From Escherichia coli (GTDB lineage: Bacteria > Pseudomonadota > Gammaproteobacteria > Enterobacterales > Enterobacteriaceae): a stretch of 64,000 bases of DNA. The stretch is taken from the NCBI RefSeq assembly GCF_003334405.1, contig NZ_QOWM01000011.1, one strand, 5' to 3'. The translations under genes and the position numbers were made by a program. The notes under the pieces were generated by a model. The model was not told where the DNA came from, made no database searches, and saw only the letters and a list, made by a program, of their open reading frames with translations. This document shows positions 27,297-28,553 of the stretch, one piece after another (the first letter of the stretch is position 1; each line of letters begins with the position of its first letter).

Positions 27297-27442
27297 CTGA
27301 AGACGCTCTCTGAACGTTACAGGGTGATCAGTGAGATAAGTCTGTTAATTATAAAGTAAACACTGTAAAGCAGAGTGTTTTATTTTTCATTCGCGCTGTG
27401 AATAAATAGATGAAAGTTATAGTAGCTGTCTGTAGTTATATA

Positions 27443-28345
27443 TCAAAAACTCTCATTTAGACGGTCAATAAATCGGGAGAACACCAAATTATTTAAAGAA
27501 GATTTATTATAGGAAATGTAAAGCTTTATTGAAGGTAACGGATGTTCTAGTTTTATCTCTTTTAAGTTAAGAAAGTCACGGTAGAAATTATAAAGTTCAT
27601 AGGGGACTATTCCCAGTAAATCTGTAACTGCAATGCTATTAATGATTGTCAGCAAAGAGGAACCACGAAATGAGATTTTGCGATTCATAAATCTCTCGTC
27701 TATTTCCATTTGAATATCATCAACCCCTGCTGATTTAGATATTAATTGGGTGAACTCTTCTGCCATAATTTGTTCATAAGTGCTATTGTCAGTAATTCGT
27801 GGATGCCTATTACTACAAATTAGAGTATTGCGAATCGTATGCAATGGCATGCAAATGACGGAACGGCTGATCACTGGCATTTGGGTGATCACCAGATCGG
27901 CTTTGCGGTGAACCAACAGTTCTTCAGCATTCTCTGCTGACATGAGGATATCATGGCACTCAATCTCGACAGAGGAATCTTGCCGTAGGCAGCGGATCAG
28001 CATACTATTATTAGAGCAAGAAATGAGCTGAGGGCCGTAGATAATAAAGTTTTTCTTTAGTTCGGACTTATTGACTATATTAATTGTTTGTTCAAGGCCT
28101 CTGAGATTTTTCTCAAGATGGTGATGCAGATTTAACCCTGTTGTCGTCGGCGCGATACCTTTTCCTGAGCGAATGAATAAAGGGTCATTAAATTGCGCAC
28201 GTAAGCGTTGTAACGACTGGCTCACGGCTGATGGGGTGATATATAGTGATTCAGCAGCTTTGCTAATGCTTAAATGCTGGTAAATACACTCAAATATGAC
28301 AAGAAGATTTAAGTCGAACGTTTTCAAGTCGTAGAGATTGGCCAT
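27443..28345 (-). CDS. ybdO: LysR-family transcriptional regulator (300 aa)
   Basis: N-terminal wHTH (LNLLVIFECIYQHLSISKAAESLYITPSAVSQSLQRLR); coding sequence is strikingly AT-rich. Confidence 0.82.
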   Translation of the reverse strand: MANLYDLKTFDLNLLVIFECIYQHLSISKAAESLYITPSAVSQSLQRLRAQFNDPLFIRSGKGIAPTTTGLNLHHHLEKNLRGLEQTINIVNKSELKKNFIIYGPQLISCSNNSMLIRCLRQDSSVEIECHDILMSAENAEELLVHRKADLVITQMPVISRSVICMPLHTIRNTLICSNRHPRITDNSTYEQIMAEEFTQLISKSAGVDDIQMEIDERFMNRKISFRGSSLLTIINSIAVTDLLGIVPYELYNFYRDFLNLKEIKLEHPLPSIKLYISYNKSSLNNLVFSRFIDRLNESF

Positions 28346-28553
28346 ACACTACTCCGGTTATATTTTTCTTCCATGATATATTCACTTAATCAATGTTTTT
28401 TGCGTATATATTTTTATTGATTATGTTTTTTTGCTTAACTCAGGATTAAGTTTTTCTAAAATAGCACAGCCACTTAGGGCAGAGCGAGCAATTCATGCTT
28501 TTTTAGGATGGTTGAAAAGCAGGGATATAGTTCAACCATCCATGAATTACCTT

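Follow-up and report, generated by a model that had tools for sequence, protein, structure and literature searches.

The AT-rich, H-NS-silenced regulator gene ybdO (citR) of Escherichia coli: an old resident with two deeply diverged alleles

In Escherichia coli K-12, the LysR-type regulator gene ybdO (b0603), now called citR, was chosen by Higashi et al. (2016, PMC4720273) to represent 'horizontally transferred genes' (HTG) bound by H-NS, and it is this gene, together with its two flanking spacers, that makes up the AT-rich block analysed here within a 64-kb stretch of E. coli DNA (the window). In chromatin affinity precipitation sequencing (ChAP-seq), H-NS occupied the region upstream of ybdO and the coding part of the gene in strains K-12, SE11 and SE15, lacZ fusions were derepressed in an hns mutant, transcription was found to start 107 bp upstream of the ATG, and expression was low in growing cells (PMC4720273). 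The same study mapped an upstream (URE) and a downstream (DRE) H-NS-dependent element, likened there to the upstream and downstream silencers of bgl and proU, and found the silencer elements to be position-conserved across the three strains. H-NS-independent negative elements were located within the coding sequence (CDS), and in K-12 one of them was contained in the DRE region (PMC4720273).

Later work has dealt with the same promoter and with the targets of the protein. An electrophoretic mobility shift assay showed H-NS on the ybdO promoter, and acid pH lifted the repression, in a study that also used quantitative reverse-transcription PCR and described the activation of kpsM by YbdO in E. 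coli K1 (Fan et al. 2022, PMC9141747); the known direct regulators of kpsM, reportedly activated by YbdO, include H-NS itself (PMC9141747). The renaming to CitR came with a peak upstream of citR in chromatin immunoprecipitation combined with exonuclease digestion (ChIP-exo), and with expression changes in a citR deletion, in which ybdN rose by log2 5.5, ybdM by log2 2.5 and citC/citF by 3-4 (Rodionova et al. 2022, PMC9068703). CitR was there named the repressor of ybdNM, with effects on citCDEF and flagella in K-12. In avian pathogenic E. coli (APEC), YbdO is reported to repress several genes, ahpC, fepG and oxyR among them (PMC11681634, 2024).

The window covers the chromosome from entD to lptE in an E. 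coli of K-12 type, and 58 of the 58 annotated CDS were placed on it without indels. The RefSeq gene order around the block is ybdL, ybdM, ybdN, citR, dsbG, ahpC, and positions 27297-28553 correspond exactly to the ybdO CDS plus the spacers toward ybdN and dsbG. The block is therefore the known gene ybdO/citR with its promoter and the ybdN spacer. A 4-kb piece around it was 99.9-100% identical to K-12-lineage genomes, and YbdO scored 464.1 bits over residues 1-294 against the NCBIfam CitR equivalog NF047710, whose cut-off is 400, with YbeF (167 bits) and then LeuO (103 bits) as the runner-up models. Nothing differs in identity from the K-12 gene and, given this identity and the equivalog score, the published properties of K-12 ybdO apply directly. 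Pfam HTH_1, the LysR-type winged helix-turn-helix, was found at residues 12-70 (E 1.7e-18), and LysR_substrate, the C-terminal substrate-binding domain (periplasmic-binding-protein-like) of LysR-type transcriptional regulators, at residues 135-299 (E 3.5e-9); solved LysR regulators aligned to residues 4-250 with E values of ~1e-14 to 1e-15.

YbdO is thus a LysR-type regulator of the YbeF/LeuO-like branch. Of its relatives, leuO is silenced by H-NS, counteracts H-NS and is conserved in Enterobacteriaceae. The LeuO model was third best for YbdO and aligned over nearly its full length (E 2e-29), but YbdO is not the LeuO orthologue, as it reached 102.8 bits against a cut-off of 262 and its genomic context differs. 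A paralogue, YbeF, is encoded in the window itself (51152-52105); it is 30% identical to YbdO over the full length, and its gene also has a low GC (0.449).

That ybdO is AT-rich, silenced by H-NS and linked to ybdNM is already in print. As both the silencing and the repression of ybdNM have been published, the finding itself is already known and, as first stated, it brings nothing new to the literature; the only apparently new part is the two-allele structure, which is a side result. What the present analysis adds to the K-12 CitR literature is the ancient residence of the gene, a candidate operator and the two alleles. Taken together, the locus is quite likely the known H-NS-silenced ybdO, putatively autoregulated and an old resident whose low GC is maintained and whose alleles are exchanged by recombination.

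The original prediction had described ybdO and its flanks as the most AT-rich stretch of the window. When sliding-window GC and codon adaptation were computed, this held at the length of the block, since its GC of 0.371, compared to a window mean of 0.518, was within the lowest 0.17% of all 1257-bp windows. The minimum among these was 27332-28588 (GC 0.364), and the next independent one 46681-47937 (GC 0.377). The block also ranked lowest at the 3-kb scale, whereas places of lower GC were found elsewhere at 200, 500, 903 and 2000 bp, such as 42725-42924 (GC 0.225, 200 bp), 46719-47218 (GC 0.306, 500 bp) and 46583-47485 (GC 0.343, 903 bp). The spacers citC-dpiB (42584-42961) and dcuC-pagP (46696-47283) exceeded the block in AT content at 200-900 bp and at 2 kb.

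The prediction also held for the CDS. The GC of ybdO was 0.386, where the other genes averaged 0.525; it was the lowest of the 58 CDS (z -3.4), and more AT-rich than dsbG (0.469) and ahpC (0.500), the two neighbours with which it had been contrasted. It was likewise the lowest of the 58 in GC at first codon positions (GC1, z -3.2), in GC at third positions (GC3, 0.398, z -2.6) and in window-relative codon adaptation (0.55 vs 0.69, z -2.8), and the second lowest in GC at second positions (GC2, z -2.0). In contrast, the spacers toward dsbG (GC 0.322) and ybdN (GC 0.342) were the 6th and 7th lowest of the 28 intergenic regions that reach 100 bp, and both are ordinary spacers in composition. Therefore, the CDS is the unusual part, and with its flanks it gives the longest continuous AT-rich run. 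Repeats inside the block were limited to short pairs at chance level. The GC of ybdN and ybdM (0.47-0.48) was likewise under the window average.

The age of the gene was examined in a scan of one genome per species with YbdO-peptide seeds, which returned 79 loci with ybdO relatives, 73 of them with at least three recognisable neighbours; these 73 were kept. The order ahpF-ahpC-(dsbG)-ybdO-(ybdN-ybdM)-ybdL was shared by these 73 loci, which represent 73 species of 17 named enterobacterial genera, among them Escherichia, Citrobacter, Salmonella, Enterobacter, Klebsiella, Raoultella, Kluyvera, Leclercia, Lelliottia, Trabulsiella and Yokenella. Roughly half of the loci lacked dsbG. Among the genes of its locus, ybdO ranked lowest in GC in 72 of the 73, with a mean offset of -0.102 (-0.121 at GC3), and its GC followed that of its neighbours (r 0.84). 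At the protein level, YbdO likewise had the lowest conservation in 72 of the 73, being 46-62% identical to K-12 outside Escherichia where its neighbours were 60-99% identical, and its divergence from K-12 co-varied with that of ybdN (rho 0.81).

Between K-12 and Citrobacter, 109 of the 182 codons encoding identical residues differed, compared to 114 expected if they were randomised. As synonymous sites are thus fully randomised between genera, a donor signature could not have survived, and a gene that nevertheless lies about 10 GC points under its neighbours at the same site in 17 genera must have had its low GC maintained. Therefore, the AT-richness of ybdO is a maintained trait and not the fading trace of a donor. 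It may be kept by H-NS silencing as a form of regulation, or by the AT-biased mutational equilibrium of a silent gene; the low GC1 and GC2, found under a dN/dS (ratio of nonsynonymous to synonymous rates) of 0.03 between the two alleles described below, indicate that amino-acid usage also contributes.

Features expected of a recent acquisition were not observed. Instead of a patchy distribution, ybdO was present in 5357 of 5426 E. coli genomes; no tRNA was found within 12 kb of it, and no integrase or mobility gene is listed in the annotation of the window. Consequently, the claim that ybdO belongs to the horizontally acquired regulators, if understood as a recent event, was not supported. Plasmid-borne copies of ybdO were considered and rejected, because most of the high-identity records were of chromosomal size (0.7-5 Mb), with the smallest two (113 kb and 280 kb) outside that check; the remaining plasmid hits, below 60% identity, were generic LysR proteins. 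Low GC together with H-NS binding, routinely read as recent acquisition, can thus mark a stable old resident gene. Horizontal movement has instead affected the allele, which was replaced homologously within Escherichia.

Evidence for this replacement came from the 5426 complete E. coli genomes, of which 3567 carried ybdO at 95% identity or more (class I, that of K-12) and 1774 at ~78-80% (class II), while 16 fell in between and 69 gave no match. A reciprocal search with the class II allele, which is carried by ST131, mirrored these counts. The two haplotypes are ~21% apart and equally AT-rich (GC 0.357 and 0.371). The edges of the divergent block were taken from K-12 aligned to two class II strains; the divergence ran from ~27150, at the 5' end of ybdN, to 28450 or 28500, in the ybdO promoter, with sharp edges and with a conserved sub-block at 28050-28200 (codons ~49-98) that is ~5% diverged between the classes. 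The right-hand breakpoints differed between the two class II strains, and in strain MEW class I sequence upstream of ~28450 was joined to a class II 5' untranslated region and gene; this mosaic promoter therefore marks a recombination breakpoint at the ybdO transcription start. Among control regions, ybdL, 2 kb away, and the ybeF region showed no genome below 90% identity, and the dcuC-pagP region 23. Unlike ybdO, ybeF has no second class of the 78% type, every E. coli match being at least 90% identical. Both class II strains examined also lacked ybdR (32815-34053 in the window, between uspG and rnk), where the small gene yldA was present, so ybdR is variable in E. coli.

Most of the divergence between the classes is synonymous. 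The proportion of synonymous differences (pS) was 0.71 (dS ~2) and that of nonsynonymous ones (pN) 0.064, giving the dN/dS of 0.03, and the dS of the flanks was 0.08-0.27. Among the codons for identical residues, 118 of 261 differed, where full saturation would give 164; for codons 1-48 the figures were 26 of 46 against 29.4. A Nei-Gojobori pS of 0.92, 'beyond saturation', in codons 1-48 was discarded as an artefact of two-fold sites on the basis of this direct count. At the protein level, a single difference was found in the first 110 residues and 34 in the remaining 190.

The history of the alleles conflicts with that of their flanks, as judged from distance matrices with 1000 column bootstraps. 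The distance of ybdO from K-12 was 6.4% in Escherichia sp. MOD1-EC7003 and 20.5% in E. coli NR379, and the NR379 gene was 11.6% from that of the cryptic Escherichia lineage SCPM-O-B-8794, the flanks of which are 9-11% from K-12. The flanks, in contrast, paired K-12 with NR379 (3.4%), with a bootstrap of 1.000 vs 0.000 against the ybdO distances. Within one allele lineage, the ybdO distance equalled the flank distance. A third lineage, in E. whittamii and strain E1V33, was 28-29% from both classes, with flanks at 7-9%. This pattern of allele and flank distances excludes local hypermutation as the source of the divergence. It fits old alleles swapped by homologous recombination, or a polymorphism that predates the species, and 'H-NS-facilitated diversification' fits it poorly.

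With modest confidence, we favour an ancient cross-species Escherichia polymorphism, in which at least three lineages (K-12, B2/ST131 and E. whittamii), 20-29% apart, would be carried on a 1.3-kb recombining cassette and would all have retained the low GC, the promoter and the operator. Exchange of the block as a cassette within Escherichia, through homologous recombination, has left E. coli with its two deeply diverged alleles. A full-text search of the literature returned no paper joining ybdO with 'recombination' and 'alleles'. If this interpretation is correct, the textbook case for 'H-NS facilitates sequence diversification' (PMC4720273) would be one of allele replacement, and the near-identical DNA-binding domains, with the 34 differences mainly in the effector-binding domain, may explain the clashes between K-12, K1 and APEC phenotypes. 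Allele class affects the comparison of K-12 (class I) with, probably, the K1 and APEC work, the class II allele having been assigned here to ST131 (phylogroup B2).

Regarding silencing, the original prediction agrees with what others have shown experimentally (PMC4720273, PMC9141747), and the published ChAP-seq contradicts a lack of H-NS occupancy (PMC4720273). According to these studies, the promoter, itself AT-rich, and the initial ~160 bp of the CDS recruit H-NS via URE and DRE, which were placed in the window by converting the published offsets with the ATG at 28345. The gene is thereby kept nearly silent during growth, and its silencing relaxes in early stationary phase and at acid pH.

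As a generic promoter scan was not enriched over shuffled sequences (7 vs 8.8), the position of the ybdO promoter follows the published transcription start (PMC4720273), which falls at ~28452, six bases downstream of an extended -10 (TGcTATTTT). Although the DNA around it has diverged, this -10 is kept in other genera and in the two E. coli allele classes alike. The perfect dyad CTTAA-N7-TTAAG next to it is the single perfect match in the window; its half-sites are the same in both E. coli alleles with a variable spacer between them, and the TTAAG half is kept across genera. The -10, the start site and the dyad half-sites thus form an island conserved between alleles and across genera, in diverged surroundings. 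The dyad is a candidate CitR autoregulatory operator, to which YbdO, once made, may bind just 3' of its own start and so repress its own promoter. No second CTTAA-N7-TTAAG with up to one mismatch was found upstream of ybdN or citC.

The AT-rich block is also a recurrent insertion target. In a sample of 60 E. coli rows, 59 matched over the full length, and 4 of these (~7%) contained the insertion sequence (IS) IS1. An IS1 insertion at 28498-28507, ~50 bp upstream of the ybdO start and between URE and the promoter, was found in one class I and one class II strain, as independent events. Further IS1 copies were located inside the CDS (28145-28154 and 27792-27799), an IS5 was found in the ybdO-ybdN spacer (27355-27363), and one strain had lost ybdO by an ISKpn26-associated deletion. 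The silenced promoter of bgl is likewise a repeated target of IS1 or IS5, and the recurrence of IS near the silenced promoter of ybdO, in both alleles, is a likeness to it. Both IS1 copies at 28498-28507 sit at the 3' foot of the stem-loop that follows dsbG (Table 1).

Control of ybdNM by CitR, for which the original prediction considered the gene well positioned, is plausible but not proven. The ChIP-exo peak and the rise of both genes in the citR deletion argue for it, as does the place of ybdN, directly downstream of ybdO at constant spacing in 60 of the 73 loci. Other features weigh against it. LysR regulators are typically transcribed divergently from the neighbour that they regulate, though not obligatorily so. 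Here, dsbG, ybdO, ybdN and ybdM share one direction, on the minus strand, and both the sole ChIP-exo peak and the one conserved LysR-type dyad map to the promoter of ybdO itself. Eleven species, including Leclercia, Silvania, Klebsiella indica and Raoultella terrigena, had ybdO without ybdNM, and therefore ybdNM cannot be the sole purpose of YbdO. In these 11 species, ybdO adjoins ybdL. Most likely, the effect on ybdNM would be exerted via the ybdO promoter and read-through across the 146 bp of same-strand spacer, where the terminator scan found no convincing intrinsic terminator and the RNA fold z-score was -0.45 vs shuffled sequences; no separate CitR operator at ybdN would then be needed. 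The dyad and the TATAAT of this spacer (Table 1) suggest that ybdN may have its own promoter too.

Other explanations have been weighed against this account. That ybdO is a recently acquired xenogeneic gene, with the AT-richness of its donor and silenced for that reason, as the original prediction implied, would agree with its last place among the 58 genes in both GC and codon adaptation, with its H-NS binding, its silencing and its listing as horizontally transferred (PMC4720273, PMC9141747), and with its absence from ~1-2% of E. coli genomes. Synteny largely refutes this view, which we hold to be very improbable: the gene is at the same site in 73 species, with the lowest GC in nearly every locus, its GC tracks that of the host, its divergence co-varies with that of ybdN, no tRNA or mobility gene is nearby, the high-identity 'plasmid' records are mostly chromosome-sized, the single loss examined is an IS-mediated deletion, and the HTG label of PMC4720273 was taken from earlier studies predicting horizontal gene transfer that are cited there. 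The low GC could instead be a neutral by-product, in which a rarely transcribed gene drifts to an AT-biased equilibrium and H-NS binding is the consequence. A GC3 0.12 below the neighbours and moving with host GC, the lowest codon adaptation in the window, the low expression in growing cells (PMC4720273) and an H-NS motif that is not enriched would all be expected from such drift. Yet GC1 and GC2 are low as well, in spite of purifying selection on the protein (dN/dS 0.03), and the silencer elements have been mapped and are position-conserved in three strains (PMC4720273), so that drift is entertained here only tentatively. Regarding the differences between strains, PMC4720273 interprets them as having arisen in place, through a relaxation of constraint by H-NS silencing. 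The rank of ybdO among the top 50 substitution rates in that study, the low conservation of YbdO, below that of every neighbour in 72 of 73 loci, and a class I lineage dN/dS of 0.156, about three times that of the flanks, point in this direction. Such an origin is nevertheless unlikely, as the differences are mainly synonymous and near saturation, fall into two discrete identity classes with normal diversity (0-2%) inside class I, are not seen among strains of phylogroups E, B1 and A (O157:H7, O111 and K-12), which are all class I, and give distances that conflict with the flanks, with mosaic breakpoints in addition.

For ybdNM, the increase in the citR deletion could be a cis effect, due to the loss of the DRE and negative element or to read-through from a cassette, and not to the loss of CitR. 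Because the deletion also removes the silencers in the CDS, this stays a live rival, to which we assign an appreciable but lesser chance. The DRE and negative element lie at +27 to +239 in the CDS, and their deletion raises promoter activity (PMC4720273); ybdNM is co-directional, 146 bp downstream and without a terminator in between; the effect falls along the operon, from log2 5.5 in ybdN to 2.5 in ybdM; and the main text and text supplements of PMC9068703 describe neither strain construction nor complementation. Against a cis effect, ChIP-exo locates CitR at the citR promoter, the non-adjacent citCDEF changed as well (PMC9068703), and the conserved LysR-type dyad overlaps the transcript start, as real autorepression predicts. 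The account preferred here, of an old, silenced and autoregulated resident with exchanged alleles, also has points that weigh against it. The candidate operator was called from conservation and position; PMC9068703 shows a predicted CitR site of its own as an image (Fig. S2). The H-NS high-affinity 10-mer TCGATAAATT, with up to two mismatches, had 60 matches vs 57.6 expected in the window, and three weak, uninformative ones in the block. Being seeded with YbdO, the species scan cannot show absence of the gene; E. albertii, E. fergusonii and E. marmotae escaped it. The published target lists clash, with kpsM in K1, ahpC/fepG/oxyR in APEC and citCDEF/flagella in K-12. Finally, ybdO was described as apparently a single cistron (PMC4720273), EcoCyc, as quoted in PMC9068703, gives ybdN an FNR-predicted promoter of its own and a promoter-like site was found at 27446 to 27419 (Table 1), so that read-through is not established.

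Table 1. Positions in the window of the ybdO block, its genes and its putative regulatory features
Feature	Position	Strand	Remarks
AT-rich block	27297..28553	none	GC 0.371
ybdO / citR CDS, 300-aa LysR-type regulator	27443..28345	-	open reading frame; RefSeq citR
ybdN, PAPS-reductase-like (IbrA-like)	26076..27296	-	downstream of ybdO, co-directional
ybdM, ParB-like / IbrB-like	25474..26103	-	overlaps ybdN end
Hyper-divergent allele block	27150..28500	none	K-12 (class I) vs class II 70-80%, flanks 95-100%
URE, H-NS-dependent, -250 to -176 from ATG	28521..28595	-	PMC4720273; overlaps dsbG 3' end
DRE, H-NS-dependent, +27 to +164	28182..28319	-	PMC4720273; inside ybdO CDS
Extended -10 TGcTATTTT of ybdO promoter	28458..28466	-	sequence and published start site
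Perfect dyad CTTAA-N7-TTAAG with T-N11-A LysR-type box	28434..28450	-	+3 to +19 of ybdO start
ybdO-ybdN spacer, 146 bp	27297..27442	-	GC 0.342
Spacer dyad ATTCAcagcgcGAAT (ATTCA-N5-TGAAT-like)	27389-27403		kept in Escherichia and Salmonella
Spacer inverted repeat AAACACT-N9-AGTGTTT	27358-27380		
Spacer TATAAT	27348-27353		
Promoter-like site	27446 to 27419		from scan
Stem-loop, 11-bp arms GGATGGTTGAA / TTCAACCATCC	28506..28541	-	directly 3' of dsbG stop

The stem-loop after dsbG is probably the 3' hairpin of that gene. Its arms change compensatorily in an alignment across Escherichia, Citrobacter, Trabulsiella and Yokenella; a T-run after the stem is absent, and it was not among the calls of the terminator scan. 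Rfam matched the enterobacterial small RNA STnc70 at 29434-29527 on the plus strand, between dsbG and ahpC and upstream of the latter (42.7 bits, gathering threshold 40).

The pair downstream of ybdO (25474-27296) consists of a PAPS-reductase/DndC-like protein, YbdN, and a ParB/IbrB-like one, YbdM. A known anti-phage defence system was rejected for the pair, as PADLOC gave marginal matches only (DndC 2e-5, BrxP 1e-4, MTase_II 1e-3). When ybeF and its flanks (50944-52363) were used as the query, 4330 of 5425 genomes covered at least 80% of it, with IS1 in the top hits; therefore, the region is partly missing or unalignable in ~1100 genomes. For the dcuC-pagP region, 1031 E. coli genomes showed 90-95% identity to K-12, a divergence above the usual.

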